Below are positions 742 to 30,804 of a DNA stretch of 64,000 bases, piece by piece (the first letter of the stretch is position 1; each line of letters opens with the position of its first letter). Origin of the DNA: an uncultured Candidatus Binatia bacterium (GTDB taxonomy: Bacteria > Desulfobacterota > Binatia > UBA9968 > CAXXLF01); the NCBI GenBank assembly GCA_965218425.1, contig OZ244621.1, positions 2,279,369 through 2,343,368 on the forward strand. Reading direction: 5' to 3'. The notes under the pieces are model-generated. The model had not been told where the DNA came from and did not search any database. It saw only the letters and a program-made list of their open reading frames with translations. The position numbers and the translations under genes are program-made.

Positions 742-1785
742 TTATTTCTTGGCAGTGAAGATCAGGGTCTTCGGGTAATGGTCCACCCAACCGAACCAGA
801 AGGAGGGGGTGACAGGTACGGCCTCCAACCTTTGACCTTTCATTTGACCCTGAACGGCCTTTCCCGTTAGCCCATTCCACACGGAGCCGGTTGTGTCGTC
901 GGTAAGAAAGGTGCCTTTGTAGTTTTCCGGCTGCGTCTTCTTGAATGTAAGAACCCGGTCTTTCACCTGGCGTTTAAACACCATCCCCGTCGCGCTGTCC
1001 TTTTCGAAGACCGCAAGAATTGGGATCCCTTGGAATACGTCATTGACCACCGGCTGCTTGCTCAGGACGGAATAGGGGTAAGCCTTCGCTTTTCCATCGA
1101 TCACTAATCCAAGTACGTATTCTTTGGGATAGACCCTCTTATCAGACAAGCGAGTGGGAATAATCCCCGTGTCTGCGGAACTATAGTATGATTCGTAAGG
1201 GTCCCGTCCCAAGCTGAGGGGAAAAGGCCGTCCACTGGTTAAAACCTTGGAGTCCGGGTAGAGTCCCATCCAGGTCCCCCAACGAGTAAACGTGGATTCC
1301 ATGGGTTTGAGCTTGTTCCCGTCCATTGGGCCTTTGACCGCCGCTCCCACCAGGTGGCTCCAGAGGCTGTCCGTTTGGTGGTCGTACATTATCAGAGAAT
1401 TGGCATGGAGTTTCCCTGAGACCCCAAAGGTCAACTCCTTGTCTGCGATTCTACGGTCATACACGATGGCCGTATAACAGAGGGGTCACCAGGTGACCGC
1501 GATGGGTATGCCGCCAACTTTGTCGTTGACGATTTCAACCCGGCTCAGTGTGGCTACGGGGTAGGCGCGACTGTCCCCATTGATTTCCACACCGATGACG
1601 GATTCGTCCGCCTTGAGCCATTGGGCACTTTTGCCGTCCTGGAACTCGGGGGAGAGGATGGCCGCAATGGCATCCTTGGCCAGGACGGTAATAATCTCAT
1701 TCGGACGAAGGTCTGCCGCATGAGAATGATTTGGCAGGAATAGTAAGACCAACAGGATCAGCCATAGGGGAAGACAGTATTTCAA
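742..1785 (-). CDS. DUF3179-family secreted protein with in-frame TGA (candidate selenocysteine, W-U-P-L-C; alternatively a pseudogene)
   Basis: Two adjacent minus-strand ORFs (1486..1908 and 742..1464) are in the SAME frame separated only by TGA at 1483-1485 (...IAVTW-TGA-PLCYTAIVYDRR...). N-terminus has a signal peptide from a TTG start at 1785 (MKYCLPLWLILLVLLFLPNHSHA). An ATG at 1908 is an alternative start. Confidence 0.55.
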
Positions 1786-1798
1786 TGGGCCCTCTTGT

Positions 1799-2644
1799 TT
1801 AGCTCTGGATAGGTTTGGAAGCGGACCGGGCGAGGTGCAGGAGCTCCTGGATGGGTCTCTTGGAAACCAGAAGGCAGATTCGTTCTCCCATGCGGTGCAT
1901 GACCCCATTTATCCCATCGTTGGAGAAAGTATAAAAACTGACCTTTCTCTCCGGATCAAAGAGCCTGCGGGCTTGTGGTGGAGCGTCTTGTTCCGTGCCG
2001 AGAAAGGTAAAACAACTGACAGAAGGACCGGTGCCCTCGTACACGGCAATGAGGATATCGCGATTGCCGACTTCTTTGACCGTGCCGCCGACGGCCTTTA
2101 ATCCCGCGGAGGATAGATCATAACCCATTGGCGCGAATTTGCCCTCCATGGCCTGGTGCAATTGGTTTTTAATTGCTGATGGGCTTTCGGCTCGGACAAA
2201 GGAAAGGTCGCCTGAAGCAATCTGTGCATGCGCCTCTATGGCTGCCAGAGGCATAGGCTGACCGGTCGGCCAGGTCAGGTAAAATAAAGGGACGAGCAGT
2301 AAAATCAGTGCGGCCGATGCAAAGGCGGGGCGGGTGATGAAATTGGGTGTCCGGGAGAACCCTTTACAACCTTGGGTTGGTTCGGTGGCCTGAGGTGAGA
2401 TATGGTGATCCGCGAGGATCTTTGCTCTGAGATCGGAGGGGGCGGACACTTTGGCGCCGATGGAAAAGAGCTGTTTTTTGAGCTCCTTTTCCTGCTCAAA
2501 TACGGTTTGACAGTTCACGCAATTTTTTAGATGGCTCTCTATGGCCTGTCGCTCGAGGTCATTTAGTTCGCTATCCGCTAGAGCGGTTATAAGCTCCTCG
2601 GCCTCTTTACAAGTCATTTCCGTTACTTTCCTTCCTCCATGCAC
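1799..2644 (-). CDS. anti-sigma factor (zinc-finger HxxxCxxC N-terminal domain, one TM segment, periplasmic C-terminal domain)
   Basis: N-terminal ...MTCKEAEELITALADSELNDLERQAIESHLKNCVNCQ (putative zinc-finger anti-sigma motif), central hydrophobic segment. Likely true start at the internal Met near 2617. Confidence 0.6.
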   Translation of the reverse strand: MHGGRKVTEMTCKEAEELITALADSELNDLERQAIESHLKNCVNCQTVFEQEKELKKQLFSIGAKVSAPSDLRAKILADHHISPQATEPTQGCKGFSRTPNFITRPAFASAALILLLVPLFYLTWPTGQPMPLAAIEAHAQIASGDLSFVRAESPSAIKNQLHQAMEGKFAPMGYDLSSAGLKAVGGTVKEVGNRDILIAVYEGTGPSVSCFTFLGTEQDAPPQARRLFDPERKVSFYTFSNDGINGVMHRMGERICLLVSKRPIQELLHLARSASKPIQS

Positions 2645-2834
2645 AATAGCTATAACCTATACAACGTCGTTCCTACCCCAGGAGTTCCCGAAATATTACC
2701 CCTTTACGGCGGCAAATCGATATCATAGCTCTTGGATGATCCGGGTGATTGTGGTAAGGGGTCTCTTCGTTCCGTGTCTTGTCCTAGAAAATATTCTGCA
2801 CGGAGTCTTGCACGATGACAAGGGGAGAAAGTTT

Positions 2835-4205
2835 ATGACCACGAAATACGATGCCATCGTTATCGGTACAGGCCAGTCGGGCCCTTCCCTGGCCGCGCGG
2901 ATGGCGGGTGAAGGAATGAAAGTTGCCATCATTGAACGCAAGTCGTTTGGTGGCACCTGCGTTAATACCGGTTGAATACCCACCAAGACCCTGGTGGCCA
3001 GTGCCCATGCCGCTCACATTGCAAGGCGTGGGGCTGAATACGGGGTGATGATCGGCGGGCCGGTCACCGTGGATATGAAAAAGGTCAAGGAGCGTAAGGA
3101 CAAGGCGGTGCAGCGGTCCAATCAGGGAGTGGGCAATTGGGTCAAGAACCTGAAGAACGCTAAGGTTTACGAAGACCACGGGCGGTTCGAGGGACCCCAC
3201 GCGGTGCGTGTGGGAGGGGAGCTCATAGAGGCGGATAAGATTTTCATCAATGTCGGCGCGCGCGCGTCGGTAATGGACCTCCCTGGGGTAAATTACTTCA
3301 CCAATTCGAGCATCATGGAGGTGGATTTTCTCCCAAAGCACCTGATCGTGGTCGGCGGAAGCTACATCGGCCTGGAGTTTGGTCAGATGTACAGACGCTT
3401 CGGCAGCGAAGTGACCATCGTGGACCGTGGGCCTCGGTTGACCCAGCAGGATGATGAGGACACTTCCCTGGCGATCAAGGAGATTTTGGAAGCGGAGGGG
3501 GTGAACGTTCGGCTCGAAGCTGAATGTATTTCTGCTGCGCAAAAGGGCGATCAGATCACCGTCAATTTGGACTGCAAAACCGGAGGTAAGGAGGTAACGG
3601 GTACCCACCTGCTGCTCGCCATCGGACGGCGTCCCAACACGGACGACCTGGGCATAGATAAAGCAGGCCTCGAAGTGGATCGGCGGGGGTACATCAAGGT
3701 GGACGATCGGCTTCAGACCAACGTGCCTGGAGTTTGGGCCATTGGGGACTGCAATGGCAAGGGAGCCTTCACCCACACCTCGTATAACGACTATGAAATT
3801 GTTGCGGCCAATCTGTTCGACGACGACCCACGCCGGGTCAGCGACCGAATTTTAACCTATGGGATGTTTATCGATCCGCCCCTCGGACGCGCGGGAATGA
3901 TCGAAGATGCAGTGAAAAAATCAGGCCGCAAAGCGTTGATAGCAAAGAGGCCCATGACTCGTGTGGCGCGCGCCGTGGAGAAAGGCGAGACACAGGGATT
4001 TATGAAGATCTTGGTGGATGCCGAAACCAAAGAGATCCTCGGGGCCGCCGTCCTTGGTGTTGGTGGCGATGAAATCATTCATTCCATCCTGGATGTGATG
4101 TACGCCAAGGCGCCCTGCACGGTTATTCAGCGGGCTGTCCACGCCCACCCAACGGTGTCGGAGCTGATACCCACCATGCTGGGGGACCTGAAGCCGCTGG
4201 AGTGA
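2835..4205 (+). CDS. FAD/NAD(P)-dependent pyridine nucleotide-disulfide oxidoreductase (mercuric reductase / RclA-like class I) with selenocysteine at the redox-active site (GGTCVNTG-U-IPTK)
   Basis: ATG 2835 preceded by AGGGGAG RBS. GxGxxG FAD motif (VIGTGQSG). In-frame TGA at 2973-2975 sits exactly where the second Cys of the conserved CVNxGCIPSK disulfide motif is expected, and the frame continues uninterrupted to 4205 with a second Rossmann motif and the C-terminal HAHPTxSE dimerisation signature. A 7-bp hairpin lies at 2979-2998, just 3' of the TGA. Confidence 0.8.
2979..2998 (+). promoter_or_regulatory. hairpin immediately 3' of the Sec-TGA of the oxidoreductase (candidate bacterial SECIS core)
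   Basis: CCCACCA-AGACCC-TGGTGGG-like 7-bp stem / 6-nt loop at 2979-2998. Confidence 0.4.
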
Positions 4206-4359: not shown

Positions 4360-4950
4360 TCATTCTCGCTTTTTCCCGCCTTGTTTAACCTCTTCCACCA
4401 TGTAGCATCGTAGGTATTGGTGAAGGTATTTTCTACCCCGGGAAAGTCTGGAGCGAATGGTTCCCAAGGGGCATGAGAGCACCTCCGAGGCCTCTGCATA
4501 TGAAAGCTCTCCCATGTCCACCAGTACAATGGGCGCTCTAAATTCTTCAGGGATTTTGGTCAGGGCCTCATTGACCTTGACGCTCAATTCTTTAGTGTAG
4601 ACATTGTCTTCCGGCCCTGGCTCCGGTCCCGGAAGCGTCTCCCAATAATCTAAGCCCTCTTCGTCCCAGAGACCCCGTCCTTCCACGGCCGCCCATCTTC
4701 TCTTCCTGTGGTGGTGATCGAGAAAAAAGTTATAGAGGATCCGACTCAGCCACGCCTTCAGGTTGGTTCCAGGGGTGAACTGTTCGAATGAATCAAGGGC
4801 ACGTAGATAGGCTTCTTGGACAAGGTCTTGAGCTTCCTGAGGGTCCCTCGATAGGTGTAGGGCAACTCGATAAAGGTGATCGAGGTGTTGCAGCGCCTCT
4901 TGGGCGAAGCGCTCTCTCCCGGCTTTGGTGTTTTTGCCCCTCCGTATCAC
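4360..4950 (-). CDS. ECF (RpoE-like) sigma-70 family sigma factor
   Basis: 196 aa; region 2 (YLRALDSFEQF...AWLSRILYNFFLDHHHRKRR) and region 4 HTH (ELSYAEASEVLSCPLGTIRSRLSRGR). Confidence 0.85.
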   Translation of the reverse strand: MIRRGKNTKAGRERFAQEALQHLDHLYRVALHLSRDPQEAQDLVQEAYLRALDSFEQFTPGTNLKAWLSRILYNFFLDHHHRKRRWAAVEGRGLWDEEGLDYWETLPGPEPGPEDNVYTKELSVKVNEALTKIPEEFRAPIVLVDMGELSYAEASEVLSCPLGTIRSRLSRGRKYLHQYLRCYMVEEVKQGGKKRE

Positions 4951-5310: not shown

Positions 5311-6273
5311 ATGCAGAGCTTCGCTGAGAAAATAAGACAAAGCGGCGACAGCTTCCTCAAGCGCAAGGTGGAAACCCTGCAGGTTAACATGGGGAAGTAC
5401 TGCAACCAGGCATGCCTGCACTGTCACGTGGAGGCGGGACCCACCCGGAAGGAAATCATGACTCTGGAAACGGTAGAGTCGGTGCTCCGTTTCCTCGAGA
5501 AGTCCGATGTGCCCACAGTGGACATCACGGGGGGCGCGCCGGAGCTCAACCCGCATTTCGACTACCTCGTGGAGCGCAGCGTCCAGCTTGGCCGCCACGT
5601 GATGGACCGATGCAATCTCACCGTCATCTTTGAACAGGGGAAGGAGTATCTCCCGGACTTCTTTCAAAAAAACCGGGTGGAGCTGATCTGCTCTCTTCCC
5701 TGCTACACAGAGGGGAACGTAGACCAACAGAGGGGCAAAGGGACCTTCAATCTGAGTATCCGGGCGCTGCGGCTTCTGAACGGCCTGGGATATGGAGTCG
5801 AAGGCACGGGTCTGGAGCTGCAATTGGTCTATAACCCGGTGGGGGCTTACCTTCCGTCGCCCCAGGAACGATTGGAACAGGACTATAAGACTATCCTCAA
5901 GGAAGAATACGGCATCGTTTTTAACCATCTCTACTGTCTTACCAATGTGCCCATCACTCGATTTGAGACCTTTCTGAAGGTGCGAAACGAGTATGACCGG
6001 TATATGGAGCTGATCCAGTCCGCGTTCAACCCGGATACCGTGGACAAGGTCATGTGCAGAAACATCTTGAGCGTAGGATGGGAGGGGTCCGTTTACGACT
6101 GTGACTTCAATCAGATGCTGGAGCTGCCGGTCTCGAACCGACAGGGTAAGCCGCTAAAGATCCAGGACCTCCATGCCGATGGCCTGGAAAATCAATCAAT
6201 CGTGGTCGGAAATCACTGCTACGCCTGTACGGCGGGAGCCGGGAGTAGCTGCGGCGGTTCATTAATAGCGTAA
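5311..6273 (+). CDS. arsS: arsenosugar-biosynthesis radical SAM (seleno)protein ArsS family, Cys form
   Basis: CNQACLHCHVEAGP radical-SAM cluster motif, DITGGAPELNP, CDFNQMLEL, and the family-specific C-terminal HCYACTAGAGSSCGG tail. No in-frame TGA here. Confidence 0.8.
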   Translation: MQSFAEKIRQSGDSFLKRKVETLQVNMGKYCNQACLHCHVEAGPTRKEIMTLETVESVLRFLEKSDVPTVDITGGAPELNPHFDYLVERSVQLGRHVMDRCNLTVIFEQGKEYLPDFFQKNRVELICSLPCYTEGNVDQQRGKGTFNLSIRALRLLNGLGYGVEGTGLELQLVYNPVGAYLPSPQERLEQDYKTILKEEYGIVFNHLYCLTNVPITRFETFLKVRNEYDRYMELIQSAFNPDTVDKVMCRNILSVGWEGSVYDCDFNQMLELPVSNRQGKPLKIQDLHADGLENQSIVVGNHCYACTAGAGSSCGGSLIA

Positions 6274-6275
6274 CC

Positions 6276-6345
6276 GCCGCTTTGCGCTGATGGTAAAACG
6301 CAAAGCGCATGGCGCTATACGCAAAGCGTCTTTTCAGTGACGGGT
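6276..6345 (+). terminator. hairpin-rich putative terminator / repeat element downstream of arsS
   Basis: CCGCTTTGCGC...GCGCAAAGCG inverted repeats (two nested stem-loops) followed by TCTTTTC. Confidence 0.4.
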
Positions 6346-6652
6346 TACGAGTACCGAGTGGAAATTGAGGGTGGGTCAAGGGTGTAGTGAAGTCCGCACT
6401 GTCAACCCTCCACTCCCTAACCTGACCCTTAAACACTTTCCACCGGCTACACCGTTTTCTGCTTACTGCGATCTTCATACGGTTTTCTTTGGCGTCTTGG
6501 CGCGAAAAACTCTTTTGAATTCGTTCTTTTAAAGAATTGATGGGTAGAATTCTAACGGCAAGGCGGGGCCGTGCAGGTCAGGCAGTGAGATTGAGGCGCC
6601 TAGACCCGGCCCCCCACAGGACCCGCAATTCGTTTGGGTTTTGCTCAGCTAG

Positions 6653-6847
6653 ATGGTAAATTACCCCATGGCTGATACATTCCTAAAGCGCAAGAAGGAG
6701 CAGGATCGGCAGAAAAAAAAGAGGGAAAAAGAGGCCATGCGACAGGACCGTAAAGCGGAAAAAGCGAATCGTAGGCCCCTGACTCCAGGCGAAGACCCTG
6801 ACATCGCGGGGATCAAGCCCGGCCCTCAACCGCCGATCGACTGGTAA
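6653..6847 (+). CDS. small highly basic hypothetical protein (64 aa, Lys/Arg/Glu-rich)
   Basis: ORF only; composition resembles small nucleic-acid-binding proteins; no recognisable family. Confidence 0.25.
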   Translation: MVNYPMADTFLKRKKEQDRQKKKREKEAMRQDRKAEKANRRPLTPGEDPDIAGIKPGPQPPIDW

Positions 6848-7012
6848 TCCGCCCCTTCACGAGCAACCTGACGTCCTTCCGCATTCACCCCTTGGACCAG
6901 AGGCCAAGTGCCGTCCTCTTTCAGCCTTATGAAAGACTTTTGCATGTCTCCGAACCCGGCGTTCTTTACCGCTCTCTGCCGGCAATCGTTGATCCGAATC
7001 GCTAAACGCGAA

Positions 7013-8317
7013 TCAGGCGCTATCCTCTGCTTTACTCTGCTTCCGATCCGACTCCAGTGACGCCAGCGCCTCCTTTACCAGCTTGCGCCGTAATTCTTTC
7101 TCTTCCTCGCCCGTCAGGTTTGCCGCGCCGGTGACGTGGACTATGCCGTTGCCCAAAACGACGCGGTTGGAACCGACCATCTTTGCAATGGGCATGGCCG
7201 AGGTAATCTGGACCACCGGGATGCCCGCCTTTTCCAGCTCGGTTGATATCGCAGCTCCGCTGCGAGTGCTCGTTCCTCAGGTGGAGGTGAGGATGACGGC
7301 GTCGACCTCCTCCCGCTTCACTTTTTCGGCCATCTCCCTGCCCAGGCGCCGCGTGTTCGAGAGCGGGTTCGATAGACCAGATGTGGAGATGAACTCGTGG
7401 TGGAGTTTTCCGATCCTGCCGCTTCTTTCCATCTCGCGCATGGCGTCGAGGGGCACGAGACGGTCCGGATCCTGTTGAACGAATCTCGGATCATAGCCGC
7501 CGTGAGAGATCTCGTAGTCCTCCCCCCTGAGATCATCCCGGCCGTCGATGCTATAGGAGCCCCACCGGGTGGCGGCTTGTCCTTCGATTTTGTCCGGGTT
7601 GCCCTTCGGAACGAGGCCGCCGTCGGTGATGAGCATGACCTTGGCCTTCGAAAGATCCCCCACGGCGGAGGGCATGGGAACCGGTTTAAAGGAAGTCGGC
7701 AACATCTCAGACTCGAAGGGCTCTCCTTTCACTTTCGTCAGGAGCATATCAACGAGCCGGACGGCGGCCGTCCGATCCGCCAGTTGATCGCGCAGGATAC
7801 CCCGGGAAAGGTAGCCTTCCTCTGCGGGCAGCCCGATGGACTTACCGTGGACGAGCTTTCCTCCCAGACGCGCCATTTTGGTTAGGACTTGCCGCATCTT
7901 GGCGGGGCTCGCACCCGAATTCACGATATAGAGCGCTTCCCGGTTGAGATCCGCCCCCGGGTTCTCGCTGCCCATCCCGGTAACGACGGGAATCCCCAGG
8001 TTGGACTGAACGGCGGCGCAGAGGGACCCCGCCGCCATCCCATATCGACCCGCTTCGAAGCAAGGACCGGCAACGAACAGCTCTGCACCCGCCTCCCGGA
8101 CCTTTGCCAGCACCGCGGCCGTCAACTCCTCCTGGTGTTCCACGGCATGGTTGTCTCCGGAAATGAGGGTCATAACCACACGTGAGCCATCGCCCAGCAG
8201 TTGTTCCAACAGCCTCCCCGGTCCTACGGCCCCCTCACGCGCCTCAAGGGGCATGCCCGCCTGCTCCTCTCCCCCGACTCCGCCGAAAAACTGATTCAAA
8301 TAGTGTACGATTCGCAT
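7013..8317 (-). CDS. grdB: glycine/sarcosine/betaine reductase component B selenoprotein (GrdB family) with in-frame Sec codon
   Basis: N-terminus MRIVHYLNQFFGGVGGEE...GPCFEAGRYG...GIPVVTGM matches GrdB. ORF 7277..8317 ends in TGA (7277-7279) in context EEVDAVILTST-U-GTSTRSGA, and the 67-aa ORF 7013..7216 is its in-frame continuation (...IPVVQITSAMPIA...EEEKELRRKLVKEAL). Confidence 0.85.
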
Positions 8318-8350: not shown

Positions 8351-9631
8351 TCAAGTGACCAAAGCCCGCATTCTCGAGGCTCCCTGTTGATTGGTGACGC
8401 CGGCAACGTTCGCAGCGGCGACCTTCGTCGGTCCGGCCAACACCCTCCTCAACTCCGGGGTCGCGGCGATGATCCGATCCACCGGTGCCAACGTGTAATT
8501 CGTTCCGTTTCCGCCGTTGTATACGATGGCATTCACCTCCGGAAAGTTGAAGAGCAGAGCCGACTCGACCCGCCTGTCCCTTGCCATGTCCGAGACCATG
8601 ACAGTGGTTTTTATGCCCATACCTTCCAGGAGCCGAGCGGTCTCCGCCAAGTCGGCATGGGGAACACCGCCGCCGTACTTGGTTAGAATGACGGCGTCCG
8701 CTTTCAACGCCCACCTGACCAGATTCGCAGCCGTCCGACAGTTTCGGTCGCGGTCGAAGTTGTCGGAACCGGCAACGGTCGCCACCGTGCCCACGAAGTT
8801 GAGATGCCGCGCATGGTGGCGACCGTAGAGCTCCAGGATCACGGGGTGATTTTGATAGAAGTAGGTTTCCGCGCCGCCGATGGAAGAATGGTACGATGGG
8901 ACGACGGCGCCGTCCAGCCACTCGTCGGGATGAAGCGGGATGGGCAGCATCCCTTCCGTGTTGGCGCCATAGAGAATGGGCTCGTCCACGCCGGGCTTTC
9001 GCTGGCGCGAGAAGATCTGGCCTACATATGCGACCCGGGGAAGCCCCTCGCGTCCCGCCTCCGCGGGACCCGCCGGGTCGAATTGACGGGTGGATGCCGC
9101 AGGCTGACTCGCCGCAATGCGGGCCATATGAACCGAGAGCCTGAGACCGGCCCGACGATACGCTTTTCCGATGCTTTGAGCGGGCAACTCCGAACGCGTA
9201 CGGGGAATCGCCACCAGGTGGTGCAACGAGGAGTAATTGCTGCCTTCAGCGGCTGCCCCGCTCATCTCCAATACCCGGCCCGTCACGCCCCTGGACTCTC
9301 CCGGAGACCTCTCCGCCAGAACGGTGACGACGGCTCCTTCGAGCACATGGGTCGTCCCCATGCCCGCCGTTTCCGGCGCACCCAGGATGCCCGGGAAATC
9401 AGGGCTTGAGCCCTCTCCTTTAGCTCTGGGCTCGATGATGTCGAAGACGGGCGCGGCCCGACAACTCTCGCCGGGGCGCACGATTTGGAAATCCACGCCG
9501 GTAAGGGCATCGTCTTCAAGAACCAACCGGCGCAGTTCCTCCGGATCGACGACGAGGACCGAGCCGTCGAGACGGGCCGGTGTTTCCAAGCGGATCTCCG
9601 TGATGGGGTGACATGCCAGGGTCAAACGCAT
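8351..9631 (-). CDS. grdE: glycine reductase component B alpha/beta proprotein (GrdE family)
   Basis: MRLTLACHPITEIRLE...IVRPGESCRAAPVFDIIEPR... matches GrdE N-terminus; ~425 aa; internal N-C pair (DRDRNCR) as possible pyruvoyl-forming self-cleavage site. Confidence 0.75.
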   Translation of the reverse strand: MRLTLACHPITEIRLETPARLDGSVLVVDPEELRRLVLEDDALTGVDFQIVRPGESCRAAPVFDIIEPRAKGEGSSPDFPGILGAPETAGMGTTHVLEGAVVTVLAERSPGESRGVTGRVLEMSGAAAEGSNYSSLHHLVAIPRTRSELPAQSIGKAYRRAGLRLSVHMARIAASQPAASTRQFDPAGPAEAGREGLPRVAYVGQIFSRQRKPGVDEPILYGANTEGMLPIPLHPDEWLDGAVVPSYHSSIGGAETYFYQNHPVILELYGRHHARHLNFVGTVATVAGSDNFDRDRNCRTAANLVRWALKADAVILTKYGGGVPHADLAETARLLEGMGIKTTVMVSDMARDRRVESALLFNFPEVNAIVYNGGNGTNYTLAPVDRIIAATPELRRVLAGPTKVAAANVAGVTNQQGASRMRALVT

Positions 9632-9751
9632 TTTTCTTTCCTCTCGTGAAGACCCGGCAAGGGACCGGGAGTCCTCCAGGAGCGAGCGCAATCTCAGACC
9701 GGCTACTGCTCTGCTTATACCTCAAAGCAAGCTTGCCGCCAAGGGTTCAGC

Positions 9752-10402: not shown

Positions 10403-11854
10403 TTAGTTTTTCGGGTTACGCTCCAATACAAAGGATAATCCGTCCGCCATCTGAGTCATGCGGCCTAAAAACAGGCTCCCTTTGGCCAAGAACATGGCTC
10501 GATCCATAGCCCCCGACACGATACGGTCCACTGCGTGCCCCAGGAAAGGGATCGCCGAGGCGATATGGCCCTGAGTCGGGGCATAACCGGGCATTCCGTG
10601 TGTTTCCGCAAAACTTGAAATCTCGTTAGGGGCGATCTCTTTGTTCCGCGCCGCCAGGGCGGCGATAAGCCTGTAGTTCGTCAACGGAACGTTGCCGTTT
10701 CCGGACGGTTCCGTCACCTCCGGGTTGTGCAGCTCGGTGGCGTACTTGTCGATATCCCCGAAGCGCAATTTTAGTTTCTGCAGCGGCTCGGCCACCAGTG
10801 AGCCGAAGACGGCCTGCTGGCTCGAGCCGGCACCCACCCGGTGCATACCGACGGAATCCAGCCTTAGCCAAGGATGTTTCCCGTCGTCCCCGGAGACGTG
10901 GATGGCAACTCCCGCCAAAACATCCTCCAAGACCGGTTGTTCGTGTTTGAGATGGCCTTGAAACTTCATCCCGAGTTTCGCCAGAGAGCCGCCCCCGACG
11001 ACCACCACATTGCGGAACACACCCGCGCTCACGAGGCTGCCGGCCAGCAGCAAAGCATGGTTCGGACCCGAGCAAAAGCCTTTGACGTCGACCCCGCTCG
11101 CCATGGAGCACCCGCACATTTCCCCGATGGCCTTCGCCAGGTTTCCTCCGCCGCGCTGGTAACGGTCGCCCACCGCCTCCTCGCCGCTGTTTAGAACATA
11201 ATCAATGGCAGCGGCCTGTGCGCCTTCACCCTTCAGGAGCGTCTTCAGGGCCACTACCGCCGTCGCCTTGCAGGCCAGGTTCTCGAGGAGAATGTCGGGC
11301 GCAAGGGAGCGGTCCTCCCGATCGCCCGGCAGGACGCAGCCCACCAATTGCCCGTCCCGCAGATTGAGGGGGAGCGCGGGCGACGGACCGTCGATCCGAG
11401 CCTCGATGGCGGAGAGCGGCTTGCCGTCGTTGAGGTTCGCGGCTTCCACCTTCCCGAAGAGCGGATGGAGTTCCAACGCCCGCCGCGCCGTCCCGAGAAA
11501 ACCTTCCTCGAGCCAAAGCAGCCCGAAGAGATCGCAGAGCTTCATGACGGCGTAAAACTCCTCTTCCGGCATGAATTCACCATGCCGTTGCCGCCGTTCC
11601 GTATCCTGTCTCACGGCAAACCAGGGCCGTTGGAGGGATTTCAGTTCATCGGGGTAGATGGATCCTAGAAATACCCGGTTCGGCGGATAGGACAAAGCGT
11701 CCTCGAAGGAACGGAGCCGCTCCCGAATTCGTTCGCTTACCGCCGCTTCCCGGACGATTTCACGCGCCGGTTTCGAGCCGTGGGTGACAAGTCCGGGCGT
11801 ATGAGATAAAAAGTAGCGAACGGCCTTGATGACTGGTTGATTTCCCGGGGGCAT
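10403..11854 (-). CDS. grdC: glycine reductase complex component C-like protein (GrdC-like, beta-ketoacyl-synthase-like fold)
   Basis: 483 aa; size and context (immediately upstream of grdA-grdE-grdB) fit GrdC. Assignment GrdC versus GrdD is from size only. Confidence 0.5.
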   Translation of the reverse strand: MPPGNQPVIKAVRYFLSHTPGLVTHGSKPAREIVREAAVSERIRERLRSFEDALSYPPNRVFLGSIYPDELKSLQRPWFAVRQDTERRQRHGEFMPEEEFYAVMKLCDLFGLLWLEEGFLGTARRALELHPLFGKVEAANLNDGKPLSAIEARIDGPSPALPLNLRDGQLVGCVLPGDREDRSLAPDILLENLACKATAVVALKTLLKGEGAQAAAIDYVLNSGEEAVGDRYQRGGGNLAKAIGEMCGCSMASGVDVKGFCSGPNHALLLAGSLVSAGVFRNVVVVGGGSLAKLGMKFQGHLKHEQPVLEDVLAGVAIHVSGDDGKHPWLRLDSVGMHRVGAGSSQQAVFGSLVAEPLQKLKLRFGDIDKYATELHNPEVTEPSGNGNVPLTNYRLIAALAARNKEIAPNEISSFAETHGMPGYAPTQGHIASAIPFLGHAVDRIVSGAMDRAMFLAKGSLFLGRMTQMADGLSFVLERNPKN

Positions 11855-17636: not shown

Positions 17637-20633
17637 TCAGGCCTCGGGCCGTTCGTACGTCAGACCGAACACCGTGTCCGTCATCCAACGCCGAAAAGAC
17701 TCGTTGTCCATGAACTGCTTGAAAAGCTCGGTGTCGTCCTTGAGCACGGCCGTCATCACGCGCGCCAATGCCTTATCGTGCTCGATACGGGCGTTCTGCT
17801 TGTCGGAGTTCCGCTTCGCGTTCCGGTAGGCCGTGTCCGCCGCGACGCGATTCGGGATGTCCTCGGTGATCAGCCTGTGCACCCGGTCCGAGTCGGTCCA
17901 CCGGATATTCCCGAACATCTCGTTGAAGGTCTTGAGGATGTTCGAGAGGCGGTCGAGTTCGGGTTCAGGTTTACGGCCGCCGCCGCCGGCCGGCACCGGC
18001 CCGATCTCGGCTTCCTCGTCCGGCAGTCGGACCTGCATCGCCGCCTTCTTCTCGACCCGGTAGCTGTCCATGTCGATGGACTCAAGGATGCCTCTGGACA
18101 GATCCTCTTCCACGGGCGCGGGGAGCTTCGGCACGAGGAAGTTCAGGAAGATGGAGAGCCTCTCCCACTCGGCGTTCGTGTAGGGCAGGATAGCGGCGAG
18201 GAAGTCGTACGCGCGCCCGAACGCCTTGGCCTTGCCCTTGAAGTCCACCTGCCCGTCCTCGTCGAGCTGCTCCCTGTAATGCGCAACGCAGGCGTCGAGG
18301 ATGGGGTCGAGCCGGTCGCGGTCGGCCCCACCGAGGTAGAGCGTCACGAGCCGGTCGATCTCCGCGTCGGCATAGACCTGGTAGCCGTCGAGGGCGGCCT
18401 TGAGGTCGTGCAGCTTGTTGGGATCGGTCTCCTCGCTCAGGATCGTCGTCCGGTAGTAGTCGGCGAACGCCGCTTGGATGGTGTTGGCATCGTTCATGAA
18501 GTCGAGGACGAACACGTCGTGTTTCTGCGGGTGCGCCCGGTTGAGACGCGACAGCGTCTGGACCGCCTTGATCCCGGACAGGACCTTGTCCACGTACATC
18601 GTGTGCAACAGCGGCTCGTCGTACCCGGTCTGGAACTTGTCGGCGCAAATGAGGAACCGATACGGGTCCTGCCGGATCTCGTCGGCGATCCGCCCGGGCG
18701 GGAAGCCGTTGAGGGACGCCTCACTGACCTTACCCCCGCCATACTCGTGCTCGCCCGAGAAGGCCACGATGGCCTGATACGGGCTCCTGCGCTCCAGGAG
18801 GTACTGCCGGATCGCGTGGTAATACTGGACCGCGCGCTCGATGCCGCCCGTCACCACCATCGCGCGGGCCTTGCCGCCGATCTTGTGGAGCGCCAGCACC
18901 TGTTCGTGGAAGTGGTCCACCATGATCTCGGCCTTGAGCCGGACGGCATGGTCGTGGCTCTCGACGTAGCGGCGCAGCTTCTTGCGGGCGCGCTTGGTGT
19001 CGAACTCGGGATCACCCTCGATCTTCTTGACGAGCTTGTAGTAGCTCTCGACCGGCGTGTAGCGCCCGAGCACGTCCAGGATGAAGCCCTCCTGGATCGC
19101 CTGCTTCATGGTGTAGCCGTGGAACGGTCGGCGCCTGGTCTTCCCGCCCGCGTCGTACGCTTCGCCGAAGGTCTCCAGCGTCTTGTTCTTGGGCGTGGCG
19201 GTGAAGGCGAAGTAGCTCGCGTTCGTGAGGAGCTTCCGCGCGTCCATGATGCGGTTGATCATGTCCTCGGCGGTCTCGTCCTCCTCCTCGGCGCCCGCCT
19301 CGGAGAGCGCCATGTTGAGCGCTGCCGAGGTCCTGCCGCCCTGGCTGGAATGCGCCTCGTCGATGATGATGGCGAAGCGCCGGCCCCGCTGCTCGTTCCC
19401 GATCTCTTCGAGGATGAACGGGAACTTCTGCACCGTCGAGATGATGATCTTCTTGCCGCTCTCGATAAACGCGCGGAGGTCGCCCGAGCGTTCGGCGTGA
19501 CCGACGGTGGCCCCGACCTGGGCGAACTGCTTGACCGTGTCGCGGATCTGCTTGTCGAGGATGCGCCGGTCGGTTACCACGATGATGGAGTCGAACGCCT
19601 CCGCGCCGTCTTTCCTGAGCCCGATCAACTGGTGGGCGAGCCAGGCGATGGAGTTGGACTTCCCGCTGCCGGCCGAGTGCTCGATGAGATACCGTTTCCC
19701 TGCGTCGTGCCGGCCGACGTCCGCCAAGAGGTTCCGCACCACGTCGAGCTGGTGGTAGCGCGGCCAGATCTGCACCGCACTCCTCTTGCCCGTCTTCTCA
19801 TCCTTGGCCTCGACGACCTGCGCATAGTTCTCCAGGATGTCGGTCAGCCCGTTGCGGGTAAGCAGGCGCTTCCAGAGGTAGTCGGTCTTGAGGCCGTTCG
19901 GGTTGGGCGGATTGCCCGCGCCGTCGTTCCAGCCCAGGTTGAAGGGCAGGAACCACGAACCCTTGCCCTTGAGGTGCGTGCAGAACCGCACCTCGTGGTC
20001 GTCCACCGCGAAGTGCGCCACGCAGCGGCCAAACTCGAAGAGCTTCTCGCGCGGGTCGCGGTCGCGTTTGTATTGCTGGACGGCGTCCTCGACAGTCTGC
20101 TTGGTGAGGCTGTTCTTCAGCTCGAAGGTGGCTACCGGCAGGCCGTTGATGAACAGGCCCAGGTCGAGAGCGAGCTGCGTCTCGTCGCGGCTGTAGCGGA
20201 GCTGGCGCGTGACCGAGAAGCGGTTCTGGGCGTAGCGTTCAGCGGCGAGGGGGTTGCCGGGAGACGGCGCGCCGTAGAAGAGTTCGGCGTGATGCGGCCC
20301 GTCCTTGACCCCCTTGCGGAGCACGTCGATGACGCCGCGCTTGCCGACCTCGCCTTGAAGACGCGCCAGGAACTTGCGCCGCGTCGGGCCGTCCTCTTCC
20401 AGGGCGAGCACCTCGGACGCCTTCGGTTGCGTCTCCCGCAGGAACTCCGAGAGCTGGACCAGGTCCACGCAATACTCCCGGTCGTAGTCGTTCGGGTTGC
20501 CGCAGATCCAGCCGGCGCCATAGGCGGCCGGACGCTCGCGCACCACGCCCGCTTGCGCCGGATCGCAGGGGGCTCCCGTCAGAGCCGCGCAGATGAGGCT
20601 TTCAAGTCCCTTCTCGCCGGTGTCGGTGGTCAC
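17637..20633 (-). CDS. hsdR: type I restriction-modification system endonuclease subunit R (HsdR)
   Basis: 998 aa; N-terminal endonuclease region, helicase motif I (HSAGSGKSNSIAW), DEAH box (IIDEAHSSQ), motif VI region; full length for the family. Confidence 0.9.
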   Translation of the reverse strand: MTTDTGEKGLESLICAALTGAPCDPAQAGVVRERPAAYGAGWICGNPNDYDREYCVDLVQLSEFLRETQPKASEVLALEEDGPTRRKFLARLQGEVGKRGVIDVLRKGVKDGPHHAELFYGAPSPGNPLAAERYAQNRFSVTRQLRYSRDETQLALDLGLFINGLPVATFELKNSLTKQTVEDAVQQYKRDRDPREKLFEFGRCVAHFAVDDHEVRFCTHLKGKGSWFLPFNLGWNDGAGNPPNPNGLKTDYLWKRLLTRNGLTDILENYAQVVEAKDEKTGKRSAVQIWPRYHQLDVVRNLLADVGRHDAGKRYLIEHSAGSGKSNSIAWLAHQLIGLRKDGAEAFDSIIVVTDRRILDKQIRDTVKQFAQVGATVGHAERSGDLRAFIESGKKIIISTVQKFPFILEEIGNEQRGRRFAIIIDEAHSSQGGRTSAALNMALSEAGAEEEDETAEDMINRIMDARKLLTNASYFAFTATPKNKTLETFGEAYDAGGKTRRRPFHGYTMKQAIQEGFILDVLGRYTPVESYYKLVKKIEGDPEFDTKRARKKLRRYVESHDHAVRLKAEIMVDHFHEQVLALHKIGGKARAMVVTGGIERAVQYYHAIRQYLLERRSPYQAIVAFSGEHEYGGGKVSEASLNGFPPGRIADEIRQDPYRFLICADKFQTGYDEPLLHTMYVDKVLSGIKAVQTLSRLNRAHPQKHDVFVLDFMNDANTIQAAFADYYRTTILSEETDPNKLHDLKAALDGYQVYADAEIDRLVTLYLGGADRDRLDPILDACVAHYREQLDEDGQVDFKGKAKAFGRAYDFLAAILPYTNAEWERLSIFLNFLVPKLPAPVEEDLSRGILESIDMDSYRVEKKAAMQVRLPDEEAEIGPVPAGGGGRKPEPELDRLSNILKTFNEMFGNIRWTDSDRVHRLITEDIPNRVAADTAYRNAKRNSDKQNARIEHDKALARVMTAVLKDDTELFKQFMDNESFRRWMTDTVFGLTYERPEA

Positions 20634-22891: not shown

Positions 22892-24159
22892 TGACCTTGC
22901 CCCCTAAAACGAGTCCAGGTGAAATGTTAGGGATTTTGATTTTAGGAAGGAGGCAAGGATGGCAAGAAAGCGATTTACGGCCGAGCAGATTATCCTCAAG
23001 CTGCGTGAGGCGGAGGTGAGCTTGGCCCAAGGGAAGGCGGTGGGCCAGGTGTGCAAGCAGGTGGGGGTAACCGTGCAGACCTACTACCGGTGGAGGAAGG
23101 AATATGGAGGCCTGAAGATGGATCAGGCCAAGAGGCTCAAGGCCTTGGACAAGGAGAATGCGCGGTTGAAGAAGCTGGTGGCGGATCTATCGCTGGACAA
23201 CCAGATCCTGAAGGAAGTGTCCTCGGGAAACTTCTAGGCCCGGCGAAGAGGAGACGAGCGGTGATATGGGCCAGAGAAAGATTGGGACCTGATCGAGTCT
23301 CCGAACGCCGGGCTTGCCAAGTGTTGGGACAGCCGCGATCGACGCAACGAAGAGTCCGAGAGATCCCGGAAGAGGAAGCAAGACTAGTGGCTCGGATGAT
23401 GGAGCTGGCCAGCGAATACGGGCGATACGGCTACCGGAGGATTACGGCCATGCTGCGTGGGGAGGGGTGGAAGGTCAACCACAAGCGAGTGGAGAGGCTC
23501 TGGAGGCAGGAAGGGCTGAAAGTCCTCAGCCGTCAGCCTAAGCGAGGGAGGCTCCGGTTGACTGATGGCTCCTGCATTCGCCTGAGACCGGCGCATCGAA
23601 ACCATGTGTGGAGTTATGACTTCGTGCACGAGCGAACCGAAGACGGTCGGGCCTTTCGGCTGTTGAGCATCCTGGATGAATACACCCGGGAGTGCTTGGC
23701 GATTGATGTGGCCAGACGGATGAATCACCGGGATGTGCTGGAACGGTTAGCGGAGCTATTCGTGGAACGGGGCGTGCCGCAGTCCCTTCGGTCCGACAAT
23801 GGCCCCGAGTTTACGGCTCAGGCTATCCGGGACTGGCTCAAGGCCATTGGTGTCAGGACACTCTACATCGAGCCTGGCAGTCCTTGGGAGAATGGCTACG
23901 TGGAGAGTTTTAACGGAAAACTCAGGGATGAGCTGCTCAACCGGGAGGTGTTTGAAACCCTGAGGGAAGCTCAGGTGCTGATCGAAAGATGGAGAAGAGA
24001 GTATAACCAGCGGCGGCCTCACAGCGCCCTGGGCTATCGTTCTCCGGCACCGGAGGCCTTTCTGCCCAGAGCGCAGGCTGGGAATTCATCCCCATGGGCT
24101 GGACTCCAGATAATTCCGGCTCTAACTTAAAGGGTGGTACCACTCCTGGGGGCAGGTCA
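22892..24159 (+). mobile_element. IS3-family insertion sequence (orfA HTH plus orfB DDE integrase), 1268 bp, imperfect terminal IRs TGACCTTGCCCCC / GGGGGCAGGTCA, 4-bp target-site duplication ACAG
   Basis: orfA 22959..23237 ([20 protein letters not shown]...[18 protein letters not shown]); overlapping orfB 23051..24130 in the -1 frame with the DDE core (…[10 protein letters not shown]…DNGPEFT…[20 protein letters not shown]…). TSD ACAG at 22888-22891 and 24160-24163. Confidence 0.85.
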
Positions 24160-25154
24160 ACAGCATACGAGGGGCTGACTATTCCAGTCTGCCTAGCAAC
24201 GCCCAGAGCGCCCATCCAAGCCCACATCGTATTGATGACCAGATCGCCGGGCCTACACAACTTGTGCCCGACGTTCGACACCGCCATAAACATCGTGATG
24301 TTCTTCTCACTTCGCGGCGTTACTCCGGTAATGTGAGACACGGACAGCAATTCCTCTGAGCCGGTCTCAGAGCGCTCATCCGTTTCCCGGAAGCACCATT
24401 TCGCTGGCCTTATTTCCCAATGCGCCGGCACCTTTCCCAGCCACTCAACGCCGGAGTCCTTGTAGGCCGGGTAGGGCTGGCCGGTGCAGATGTCCACTTG
24501 GCCCGTGACGGCGCGGTGGATGATGGCCTGCTTCTGCTCCTCCAGCAACTTGATCAGCTTCTGCTTGGCGCGGATGTAGCGCCGGATGCGCCGGTCGGCG
24601 TGGTCGAGGAAGCGGACGATGGCAGCCTGTTCGGGGAGGGGGGGGATAACTGTTCTAATCTCTCGGATTTCACTTTCACTAATAGCGGGTACTGGCCCTG
24701 GTTTCGCAATTGTTGCTAAATCAAGGTGCTCCAGCAGCAACAAGACGAACTGCGGGTTGCCACGACGGACGATGCAGCCCATCAGATTGTTGTCTATACA
24801 GCATGGACGCTCGACCACTCGCCTCTTGTTGGTCAATAGTGCCCCGCCAACTTTAGGGAACACGATTGTTCTAGACGGGAAAATGTTTGCGCCAAGTCTT
24901 GATGCGGTACTACGAGCAACGGAGTTATTCCAACTCCCCATCACTCTGTCGTTATTGGGAAGGTTCATATCGGAGACTTTGAAAAACGGCAGTTCCAGGT
25001 TCTGTTGGCCTTGTTCCAAAATTGGAAATCCAGCTCCGCTACTGAAATGCCCTAACCGCTTCAAGGCTATCACTTCCCAATGCGACGGCACATCACCGAG
25101 CCACTCGACACCGGAGGGCTTGTAGGCGGGGTGAGAGTGGATTCTGGCAGTCAT
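24160..25154 (-). pseudogene. hsdS: hsdS N-terminal portion (TRD1 plus central conserved region plus start of TRD2), interrupted by the IS3 element
   Basis: MTARIHSHPAYKPSGVEWLGDVPSHWEV...PLPEQAAIVRFLD...KQKLIKLLEEQKQAIIHRAVTGQVD...YKDSGVEWLGKVPAHWEI...GIVSPSYAV then runs into IS sequence. Confidence 0.8.
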
Positions 25155-28743: not shown

Positions 28744-30804
28744 TTATCTCCTGTTACTCTCGGCAGGACGGTTAGACGTTTCGGCTGCCATAATCTTCTG
28801 TAGCAACCCCTCGGTTTCCTTCTCCACTGCCAGAATATCCGCCCGGATCTCTTCCAGCGTGCGCAGCGGCTGCGGCTTGTAGAAGTAGCGGGTGAAGCTG
28901 ATCTCGTAGCCGGTCTTGACGCTCGCCGGGTCGTACCAGGCGTCAGGGGCATAGGGCAGCACCTCGCGGCGAAGGAATGCTTCAATTCCGCCTTCCTCCA
29001 ACAGCGGCGCCTGCTCGGTGTCCCGCAGGTCGGTGTCCGGCTCGTACTCGACGACAGCCGGCTTGCCTTTGACGGTCGCCTCGAACAGGCCGCGCAGGGG
29101 GTCGGGCTCGACGCCCTTCCTGTGGATCTTCTTGATGACGGGCGGCGCGCTCTCGTCCCTCTCGGCGGTCTCCTTGAGCGCCTTGATCTCCTTCGGCGCG
29201 TAGACGCGGTCGGGGTCTATCCCCGTGAGCCGGAGGGGCCGCTCGACCGTCACCTTCCGATACCCGAAGGCGGCGTTCGGGAAGATCTTCGACTGCTCGG
29301 TCTCCTCGAAGGCCAGGAACGTGTCGCAGATGCGCTGGATGTCCTCGTCGGACAGCTCGCAGTTCTTCTTGCCGAGGTTCTTCCGGAGCGGCTTGTACCA
29401 GGGCGCGGCGTCGATGAGCTGGACCTTGCCTTGGCGATGGGCGGGTTTCCGGTTGGTCAGCACCCAGATGTAGGTGGCGATGCCGGTGTTGTAGAACATG
29501 TTGAGCGGCAGCGCGACGATCGCCTCCAGCCAGTCGTTTTCGATGATTCAGCGGCGGATGTTGCTCTCCCCCTGACCGGCGTCTCCGGTAAAGAGCGACG
29601 AGCCGTTGTGGACCTCGGCGATGCGGCTTCCCAGAGGGGCGCCGTGCTTCATCTTCGAGAGCATGTTCGCCAGGAACAGCATCTGACCGTCGCTGGAGCG
29701 GGTGATGAGCGAGTACTCGGCATCGCCGCCGTGTTCGATCAGAAAGCGCCGGTCCTTGATACCCTCCTTGCCGCCCAGGCGCTCCAGGTCGCTCTTCCAG
29801 CTCTTGCCGTAGGGCGGGTTGGAGAGCATGAAGTCGAACTCGCGGGACGGAAAGGCGTCGTTGGAGAGCGTCGAGTGTTCCGGCCCCCCGATGATGTTGT
29901 CGGCGGCTTCCCCCTCGCCCTTGAGGAGGAGGTCAGCCTTGGCGATGGCGTAGGTCTCGGCGTTGATCTCCTGGCCGTAGAGATGGGTGGCCGCCTGCTT
30001 GCCGCGCTGCCCGGCAATCTGCGTCAACGCCTCCTCGGCCACCGTCAACATGCCTCCGGTGCCGCAGGCGCCGTCGTATACCAGGTAGGTCCCGGAGTCG
30101 ATCCGGTCGGCGACAGGCAGGAGGACCAGCTTCGCCATGAGCTGCACGGCATCGCGGGGGGTCCAGTGCTCGCCGGCCTCCTCGTTGTTCTCCTCGTTGA
30201 AGCGGCGGACCAGCTCCTCGAAGACCGTGCCCATCGCGTGGTTATCGAGGCCGGGGTGTTTGATCGACCCGTCGCCGTGGAGGACCGGGTGCGGACTCAG
30301 GTTCACGTCCGGCGAAAGGAACTTCTCGATCAGCGTGCCGAGGGCGTCGGCCTTGGACAGGCGGGGGATCTGGTTCCGAAACTCGAACTTCTCCAGGATG
30401 TCCTGCACGTTCGGCGAGAAGCCGTCGAGATACGCCTCGAAGTCGGCCTTGAGCTGCTGTTGGCCGGCGCGGGCCTTGAGGTCGGGCAGCGTGAACTTCG
30501 ATGTGTTGTGGAACGCCTGGCCGGCGGCCTGACGCAGTGCCTGGTCCTGGTGGATGATCTTCGCCTGGTCGAGCGAGGCCTTCATCTCCAGCACGGCCGG
30601 CTTGCTCGGCTCCAGGAGGGAGTCGAGCCGCCGCAGCACGGTCATGGGCAAGATCACATCCCGATACTTGCCGCGGACGTAGAGGTCTCGCAGCACGTCA
30701 TCCGCGATGCCCCAGATGAAGTTGGCGATCCAGCCGAGTTGAGATTGGTCCACGGGAATCCTGGAAAGGCTCTGCCGGGATGTCCTTTTCGGCCGCCCCG
30801 GCAC
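28744..30804 (-). pseudogene. hsdM: type I R-M N6-adenine DNA methyltransferase HsdM with in-frame TGA at a conserved Trp position
   Basis: ORF 29548..30804 contains the HsdM N-domain and catalytic NPPYG, and stops at TGA (29548-29550) in ...FTGDAGQGESNIRR-TGA-IIENDWLEAIVALP... The frame then continues into ORF 28744..29499 (MFYNTGIATYIWVLTNRK...). Confidence 0.75.

Follow-up and report, generated by a model that had tools for sequence, protein, structure and literature searches.

The TGA codon lies within one conserved gene

Positions 742-1785 on the minus strand of the DNA analysed here (the window, 64,000 nucleotides of contig OZ244621.1 from an uncultured Candidatus Binatia bacterium) very probably form one gene for an exported DUF3179 protein, in which the UGA at 1488-1486 is read as selenocysteine (Sec) by the standard mechanism. 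An initial annotation had left the choice between a new Sec-containing member and a nonsense pseudogene. The Sec alternative is strongly supported by the Cys column of the homologues, by TGA/Cys pairs and by a conserved hairpin. The claim of novelty is not supported, because the family, its Sec position and its motif stand in two reviews on prokaryotic selenoproteomes that list "DUF3179 domain-containing protein, pfam11376, UxxC/T" as a predicted selenoprotein family (Zhang et al. 2022, PMC9312934; AEM 2026, PMC13188914). The DUF3179 selenoprotein family is thus already known, and the gene is a further, Binatia-type member of it.

The TGA at 1486-1488 is the sole break between two minus-strand open reading frames (ORFs) in the same frame, listed at their maximal extents as 1486..1908 and 742..1464. 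Codons and translation bear out this arrangement as first described, with the correction that the initial annotation placed the TGA at 1483-1485, which is the next codon, CCC (Pro). The minus-strand codons read ACC TGG TGA CCC CTC TGT TAT ACG (T-W-stop-P-L-C-Y-T), and the peptide across the break is GIPIAVTW-TGA-PLCYTAIVYDRR, giving the U-x-x-C arrangement that had been proposed. The read-through product matched the Pfam DUF3179 profile (PF11376) from position 1 to 292 of 292 with the TGA spanned (E 1.9e-84, 284 bits, cutoff 27). Since this match runs end to end, the TGA lies inside one domain and not between two genes. The full product has 347 amino acids, with U as residue 100.

An exhaustive profile-free search of the DUF3179 family yielded 10,611 representative clusters. 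In 142 aligned domains, drawn from the best 150 representatives, the TGA column held Cys in about 133, Ser in 8 and another residue in 1, so the conserved CPLC named in the initial annotation does exist. At 65% identity, P0001 is the nearest homologue of full length; it reads AVTWCPLCYTAIVYDRR and has its Cys precisely at the TGA column. P0001, P0112 and P0119 all read WCPLC, and in alignment A2 C102, P103 and L104 were nearly invariant. Position four of the motif was mainly Cys across the representative domains, at times Thr, Ala or Ser, and this Cys/Thr variation corresponds to the "UxxC/T" of the selenoprotein reviews. Most of the close database matches were 240-amino-acid proteins that begin with MYDRR and correspond solely to the region past the TGA; the same truncation was seen in 16 of the top 150 representative clusters. 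Three long proteins, P0121 (1587 amino acids), P0122 (1004) and P0219 (1642), had either two to three stretches of DUF3179 or extensive additional regions.

A TGA at the same column was present in 28 homologous genes from 25 loci (within L001-L026), at identities down to 33%. The metagenome-assembled genomes (MAGs) carrying this form were labelled Binatia/"Deltaproteobacteria", Tectomicrobia, Dehalococcoidia, Verrucomicrobiia and Planctomycetota, and a Candidatus Binatia MAG (L013) held an 87% identical orthologue. Cys counterparts completed the pairs: L015 has TGC at the TGA column and L027 reads FCPLC. The homologues with Cys codons there include an Anaerolineales and an Albidovulum one. A metagenome scan for the peptide context of the motif, with a pattern that permitted TGA, TGC or TGT at the Sec column, returned TGA in 113 of 120 sequences and Cys codons in 7, making the Sec form dominant in the sub-clade of the window gene. 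The gene therefore shows the Sec/Cys pair, the U-x-x-C/T motif and the conserved TGA with coding sequence downstream by which membership in the DUF3179 selenoprotein family was judged. Five Dehalococcoidia loci (L017, L018, L019, L021 and L022, at about 6000-8300 in each) carry DUF3179 as a tandem pair of paralogues with about 1.3 kb between them; each copy has the TGA at its Sec column and a hairpin of its own.

These data bear directly on the pseudogene alternative, by which a DUF3179 gene of the Cys type was inactivated when TGC or TGT mutated to TGA, leaving the two ORFs as decaying remnants. Decay does occur in the family: the homologue at L024:4734-5550 has TAA in place of TGA and a frameshifted C-terminal half, probably through decay of this copy or through misassembly. 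An ordinary nonsense TGA is likewise seen once in the window, in frame within an HsdM-like methylase gene (29548-29550). Orthologues of the DUF3179 gene displayed the opposite of decay. Comparison with seven of them gave ratios of nonsynonymous to synonymous substitution rates (dN/dS) of 0.02-0.21 before the TGA and 0.07-0.11 after it; both halves are in frame and under strong purifying selection. The TGA recurs in MAGs from several phyla, in the genome-derived genes and metagenomic sequences counted above, and falls exactly at the most conserved Cys, followed by a hairpin with compensatory changes. We therefore reject the pseudogene, which is extremely improbable.

A conserved hairpin follows the TGA

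The initial annotation had placed a stem-loop with a GU-containing loop about 13 nt 3' of the TGA, in the complement of 1440-1475, and a hairpin resembling a selenocysteine insertion sequence (SECIS) was found within that interval (Table 1). Its conserved 7-bp core pairs 1472-1466 with 1460-1454 around a GU-containing loop at 1465-1461, so that a SECIS-like stem-loop with a G/GU apical loop lies directly 3' of the UGA. The fold of the single sequence was not significant, and comparative evidence was therefore used. Across 130 distinct TGA-form sequences 95.1% of the 910 cells of the core were paired; in a control where the 3' partner was slid by 1 to 3 columns, pairing fell to 21-50%. Double-sided (compensatory) changes were seen at four of the seven pairs, in 28 cells compared to 3.1 ± 1.6 in shuffles, and the covariation score was 0.132 against 0.039 ± 0.005 in shuffled alignments, a value that none of 500 shuffles reached. 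The clearest case was pair 21-31, where a change from Ala GCC to Ser UCC is matched in 17 sequences by Gly GGC to GGA, a switch at the synonymous third base of the partner codon. At pair 22-30, Tyr UAU stands opposite Ile AUH and UAC opposite Val GUA. Third-position entropy was 0.24-0.69 bits in the stem and 0.81-1.91 bits outside it; constraint on synonymous third positions is confined to the stem. Loop residues G25 and U26 were invariant, in part because they lie within a Val codon. Together these alignments provide strong comparative evidence for a putative SECIS.

Under the standard mechanism, this hairpin inside the coding sequence, 13 nt past the UGA and with a GU apical loop, would act as the SECIS that recruits SelB carrying Sec-tRNA(Sec). 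Sec would then take the place of the first and most conserved Cys of C-P-L-C, yielding U-P-L-C. A separate palindrome, GGUCAC-CUG-GUGACC, lies at 1484-1498 of the window (minus strand) and would form a 6-bp hairpin whose 3' arm contains the UGA; the palindrome may result from the codons for V-T-W-U-P.

Several observations weigh against Sec insertion at this codon or against the role we assign to it. Taken alone, the hairpin of the window is unexceptional (minimum free energy -11.2 kcal/mol, z = -1.2), and 22 of 200 shuffles folded equally well. A scan of the whole window at Rfam gathering thresholds gave no match. The pattern used for the metagenome scan constrained part of the 5' arm and of the loop (columns to 30) and left columns 31-35 of the 3' arm free. 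The loss of pairing in Cys forms with the same peptide context (3.86 of 7 pairs compared to 6.70 of 7 in the Sec forms, p = 4e-8) speaks for the hairpin, but it comes from a Cys control set that is small (7 sequences) and in which some amino acids differ from the Sec forms. The closest Cys form, L030, retains an identical hairpin; it failed as a negative control and was replaced by the metagenome pattern scan. Part of the hairpin is accordingly due to the conserved peptide YTAIVYDR or to recent conversion. Pfam scans of 20 large ORFs did not reveal selA, selB or selD in the window, and ARAGORN found no tRNA there, hence no tRNA-Sec. Finally, the redox function is deduced, and the predicted fold of the protein is not thioredoxin-like.

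Probable Sec decoding and other in-frame TGA codons in the window

As the Sec machinery was not found in the window, decoding capacity was inferred from a GrdB-family gene and from other TGA/Cys pairs. The read-through product of the GrdB-family gene matched TIGR01918 'selenoprotein B' over its full length with 455 bits (cutoff 65), and the LTST-U-GT context of its TGA is what we take to be the classic GrdB Sec site. The gene belongs to a glycine/sarcosine/betaine-reductase cluster comprising GrdB, a GrdE/GrdG-like component B subunit and a component C beta subunit. Because the GrdB gene of the window carries a Sec-TGA, the source organism very likely decodes Sec.

A full-length protein could also arise without selenium, if the UGA were read through by near-cognate Cys or Trp insertion or by a lineage-specific reassignment. 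SelB-independent UGA read-through is known in bacteria, and no Sec machinery was seen in the window, both of which speak for this explanation. Against it, TGA serves as the stop of ordinary genes (8351-8353 in the GrdE-like gene, for example), and in HsdM it interrupts the protein at a column that is not Cys; genome-wide reassignment of UGA (code 4 or 25) was rejected on these grounds. The TGAs that leave a protein intact all fall on Cys/Sec columns, and the proteins concerned (DUF3179, GrdB and a flavoprotein with CVNTG-U) are redox proteins; the UGA of the DUF3179 gene is moreover followed by a conserved structure of the kind needed for SelB-dependent decoding. Selenium-free read-through is consequently very unlikely, and we retain Sec insertion.

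The TGA of the HsdM-like type I methylase was considered as a further Sec site and rejected, its column being variable and occupied by T, Q or S in homologues of solved structure. A sequencing error or a genuine nonsense mutation is the probable origin of this TGA, which offers a contrast to the Sec sites within the window itself. HsdR-like (17637-20633) and HsdS-like (23937-25154) genes lie nearby.

The flavoprotein is a class-I disulfide reductase that matched NCBIfam NF004992 'FAD-containing oxidoreductase' with 775 bits (cutoff 629). Its in-frame TGA falls at the second redox-active Cys, in GGTCVNTG-U-IPTKTLV (C-x4-U), and is kept in the Binatia MAG L013. Truncation at this point was found only in relatives at least 86% identical (7 clusters), and all homologues at most 78% identical were full-length Cys forms. 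Term searches in two selenoprotein reviews, deep-Sep and BSepDB did not find a Sec form of this flavoprotein. The C-x4-U protein may be an uncatalogued, lineage-restricted Sec form. Another gene of the window (5311-6273, plus strand) encodes a radical SAM protein matching TIGR04167, the arsenosugar biosynthesis ArsS (seleno)protein, with 443 bits. In some organisms members of this family are selenoproteins; here the C-terminal motif (SSCGGSLIA) has Cys, not Sec. An ArsS-like gene is also found near DUF3179 in L007 and L011.

Predicted fold and active site

We know of no DUF3179 family member with a tested function, and a sequence search of the PDB returned no relative. An AlphaFold model of P0001, built with 62 family members, was confident, with a predicted local distance difference test score (pLDDT) of 92.5 and a predicted template modelling score (pTM) of 0.90. 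It consists of two homologous beta modules whose halves are 32% identical. The predicted fold is a tandem of Rieske-like beta modules and not a thioredoxin fold, and the model did not place the protein among the thioredoxin-fold CxxC oxidoreductases. In the model C/U-P-L-C sits on a turn between strands 95-102 and 107-112; the Sec motif would thus occupy a beta-hairpin turn of the first of the two modules. The second module has lost all three site residues at once (N, A, S).

Across the family the first Cys was more strictly kept than the position-four Cys or the His. In 16 clusters the first Cys was retained and position four had changed to T, A, I or D; the reverse was seen in only 2. A retained first Cys with a drifting partner is more in keeping with a catalytic nucleophile and a dispensable resolving residue than with a chelating pair, and Sec normally substitutes for a catalytic redox Cys. 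This pattern, together with the usual role of Sec, favours a selenol/selenenylsulfide redox centre. The likeliest chemistry would be that of a redox-active selenol with a nearby Cys (a selenenylsulfide/selenol-thiol couple) outside the cytoplasm. Of the likeness to thiol-oxidoreductase CxxC motifs drawn in the initial annotation, the proposed way of working is still plausible; the predicted fold, Rieske-like and not thioredoxin-like, goes against it.

The motif and a nearly invariant His 16 residues upstream have a spacing that recalls Rieske ligand boxes. In the main alternative for the function, Sec would be inserted as proposed, and U-x-x-C and H85 would form a metal site, with a selenolate ligand to Fe, Cu, Zn, Hg or a small cluster, on a Rieske-derived fold. 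Such a site would have just three candidate ligands. The Rieske C-x-H box is absent, and the Rieske [2Fe-2S] pattern of ligands (C-x-H ... C-x-x-H) and profile were not found, no DUF3179 member matching Pfam Rieske even at E = 5. In 16 domains that still have C-x-x-C, H85 is replaced by R, K, E, Q or P; the position-four Cys is often T or A while the first Cys stays; and the adjacent partner in related loci is a peroxiredoxin-like (Prx-like) thiol oxidoreductase. We regard the metal site as possible but unlikely and prefer the selenol redox centre.

Gene boundaries and neighbourhood

The gene likely starts at TTG 1785-1783, 13 nt past the anti-sigma TAA (1801-1799), with a Shine-Dalgarno-like sequence in front of it. 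The gene call on a near-identical public contig picks the same TTG and splits the gene into products of 99 and 215 amino acids. An overlap with the anti-sigma gene exists for the maximal ORF (ATG 1908) alone; the one described in the initial annotation therefore disappears with the TTG start, and co-transcription of the two genes, also proposed there, remains likely. The N-terminus resembles a signal peptide, as had been suggested. Homologues have similar hydrophobic N-termini, and in the homologue model the first ~30 residues form a lone helix of low pLDDT.

The anti-sigma gene lies directly upstream in the same orientation. It likely starts at ATG 2617 (the public call has 272 amino acids), and it gave weak matches to RsrA/anti-sigma models. 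A gene for a sigma factor of the extracytoplasmic function (ECF) type is separated from it in the window by the plus-strand flavoprotein gene. The order sigma, anti-sigma, DUF3179 was found again in L001, L002 and L013, and a sigma/anti-sigma pair occurs within a few kb of DUF3179 in four more loci, giving 7 loci in all. An ECF-type promoter-like sequence, GGAAC-N17-CGTT, precedes the anti-sigma/DUF3179 unit. The same sequence lies about 95 nt upstream of sigma in L001 (959) and L002 (2675), where the genes are contiguous, and L013 has a one-mismatch version, GGAAC-N17-AGTT, at the equivalent place (~5045). Exact conservation was seen only in L001, L002 and L033, and the window has 4 occurrences of the pattern where 1.5 would be expected, which does not make it statistically rare. 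Its assignment as promoter of the unit is a weak, positional one. An ECF-type promoter probably drives DUF3179 and the ZAS-type anti-sigma gene as one transcript, and the DUF3179 gene would then be an output of an extracytoplasmic or redox-stress ECF regulon.

In five related loci a gene for an exported Prx-like (AhpC/TSA) protein, with a signal peptide and its own in-frame TGA, FYRGHW-U-PYC, lies near DUF3179: a few hundred nt upstream in L004, L005, L008 and L010, and ~2 kb downstream in L011. The W-U-P-x-C context of its product is nearly identical to that of DUF3179. Five Binatia-type loci carry a multiheme c-type cytochrome of ~459 amino acids (MtrC/MtrF-like, with c552/c554 Pfam matches) directly downstream of DUF3179. 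The window lacks it and has a Fic/Doc gene (39-416) there instead. Such a neighbourhood suggests redox chemistry outside the cytoplasm that is controlled by ECF factors.

Table 1. Coordinates of the features in the window and in related loci (L numbers).
Feature	Position	Strand	Details
DUF3179 selenoprotein gene (probable)	742..1785	minus	TTG start 1785-1783; Sec-TGA 1488-1486; TAA stop 744-742
U-P-L-C motif (family C-P-L-C)	1477..1488	minus	sequence and family alignment
SECIS-like hairpin	1453..1473	minus	ACGGCCAU-CGUGU-AUGACCGU; 12-13 nt 3' of UGA
Predicted signal peptide	1717..1785	minus	MKYCLPLWLILLVLLFLPNHSHA; cleavage before ADLRP; judged by eye from sequence
Shine-Dalgarno-like AAGAGGG	1790..1796	minus	4-5 nt before TTG start; inferred from sequence
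Anti-sigma factor	1799..2644	minus	N-terminal zf-HC2 (ZAS-type, PF13490)
ECF-type promoter-like GGAAC-N17-CGTT	2663..2688	minus	upstream of anti-sigma/DUF3179 unit
Class-I flavoprotein disulfide reductase	2835-4205	plus	in-frame TGA 2973-2975
ECF sigma-70 family factor	4360..4950	minus	Sigma70_r2, r4_2, TIGR02937 ECF
GrdB-family gene	7013-8317	minus	TGA 7277-7279, VILTST-U-GTSTRSGA
Other reductase-cluster gene	8351-9691	minus	
Other reductase-cluster gene	10403-11854	minus	
HsdM-like type I methylase	28750-30804	minus	TGA 29548-29550, GESNIRR-stop-IIENDWLEAIVALP
Prx-like genes	L004:4663-4977; L005:5488-5826; L008:4009-4281; L010:3826-4137; L011:9205-9516		each with ~260 nt upstream in addition
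Multiheme cytochrome	L010:6528-7907		homologues in L001, L002, L013, L023

Implications and comparison with known systems

The 2022 review (PMC9312934) attributes the DUF3179 selenoproteins to Zhang & Gladyshev, NAR 2007 (PMC1976440), where Sec/Cys alignments and SECIS-like stem-loops are shown for new families. The name DUF3179 does not appear in that paper; by elimination the family would probably be its OS_HP1 or OS_HP2. A literature search on Binatia selenoproteins found no papers. Our results add a Binatia-type member, a well-supported model of the SECIS hairpin, a predicted tandem Rieske-like fold and a conserved neighbourhood, and with these the function of DUF3179 becomes testable. The public split into 99 and 215 amino acids and the 240-amino-acid MYDRR stubs imply that family profiles and counts of DUF3179 are biased. 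The practical value is small, and the picture of selenoproteins in general is unchanged.

A broader, doubtful proposal is that DUF3179 is a Rieske-fold-derived exported selenoprotein within an ECF-controlled extracytoplasmic selenol redox module that also includes the Prx-like selenoprotein and the multiheme cytochrome. If it holds, U-x-x-C would occupy the site of the Rieske cluster, and the module might, for example, serve electron transfer towards the cell surface or away from it, or the removal of a toxic oxidant or metalloid. DUF3179, with its more than 10,000 sequence clusters, would thereby receive a first assignment of both function and structure.

With the catalogued DUF3179 selenoproteins the window gene shares the Pfam domain, Sec as first residue of U-x-x-C, Cys homologues and a stem-loop after the UGA. 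Nothing essential differs; the gene is distinguished by its Binatia-type genome, its place behind ECF sigma and anti-sigma genes, and its splitting by public gene calls.

The comparison model for bacterial SECIS elements was that of bSECISearch (Zhang & Gladyshev 2005). As in bacterial SECIS, for example that of E. coli fdhF, the hairpin lies in the coding sequence and begins ~11-13 nt past the UGA, with an apical loop ~20 nt downstream that has G then U. Unlike these, it is short (a 7-8 bp core with a C.A mismatch) and weak alone, and no bulged U was identified.

The model resembles Rieske-type and NirD-like folds with no relationship at the sequence level. It departs from Rieske [2Fe-2S] and NirD-like proteins in that the C-x-H box is missing, C-P-L-C replaces C-x-x-H and the second module is degenerate. 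Like the exported Prx-like/TlpA-like UxxC selenoproteins, which adjoin it in related loci, the DUF3179 protein is predicted to be exported and has Sec first in W-U-P-x-C; those proteins have a thioredoxin fold (PF00578), whereas the DUF3179 model does not.

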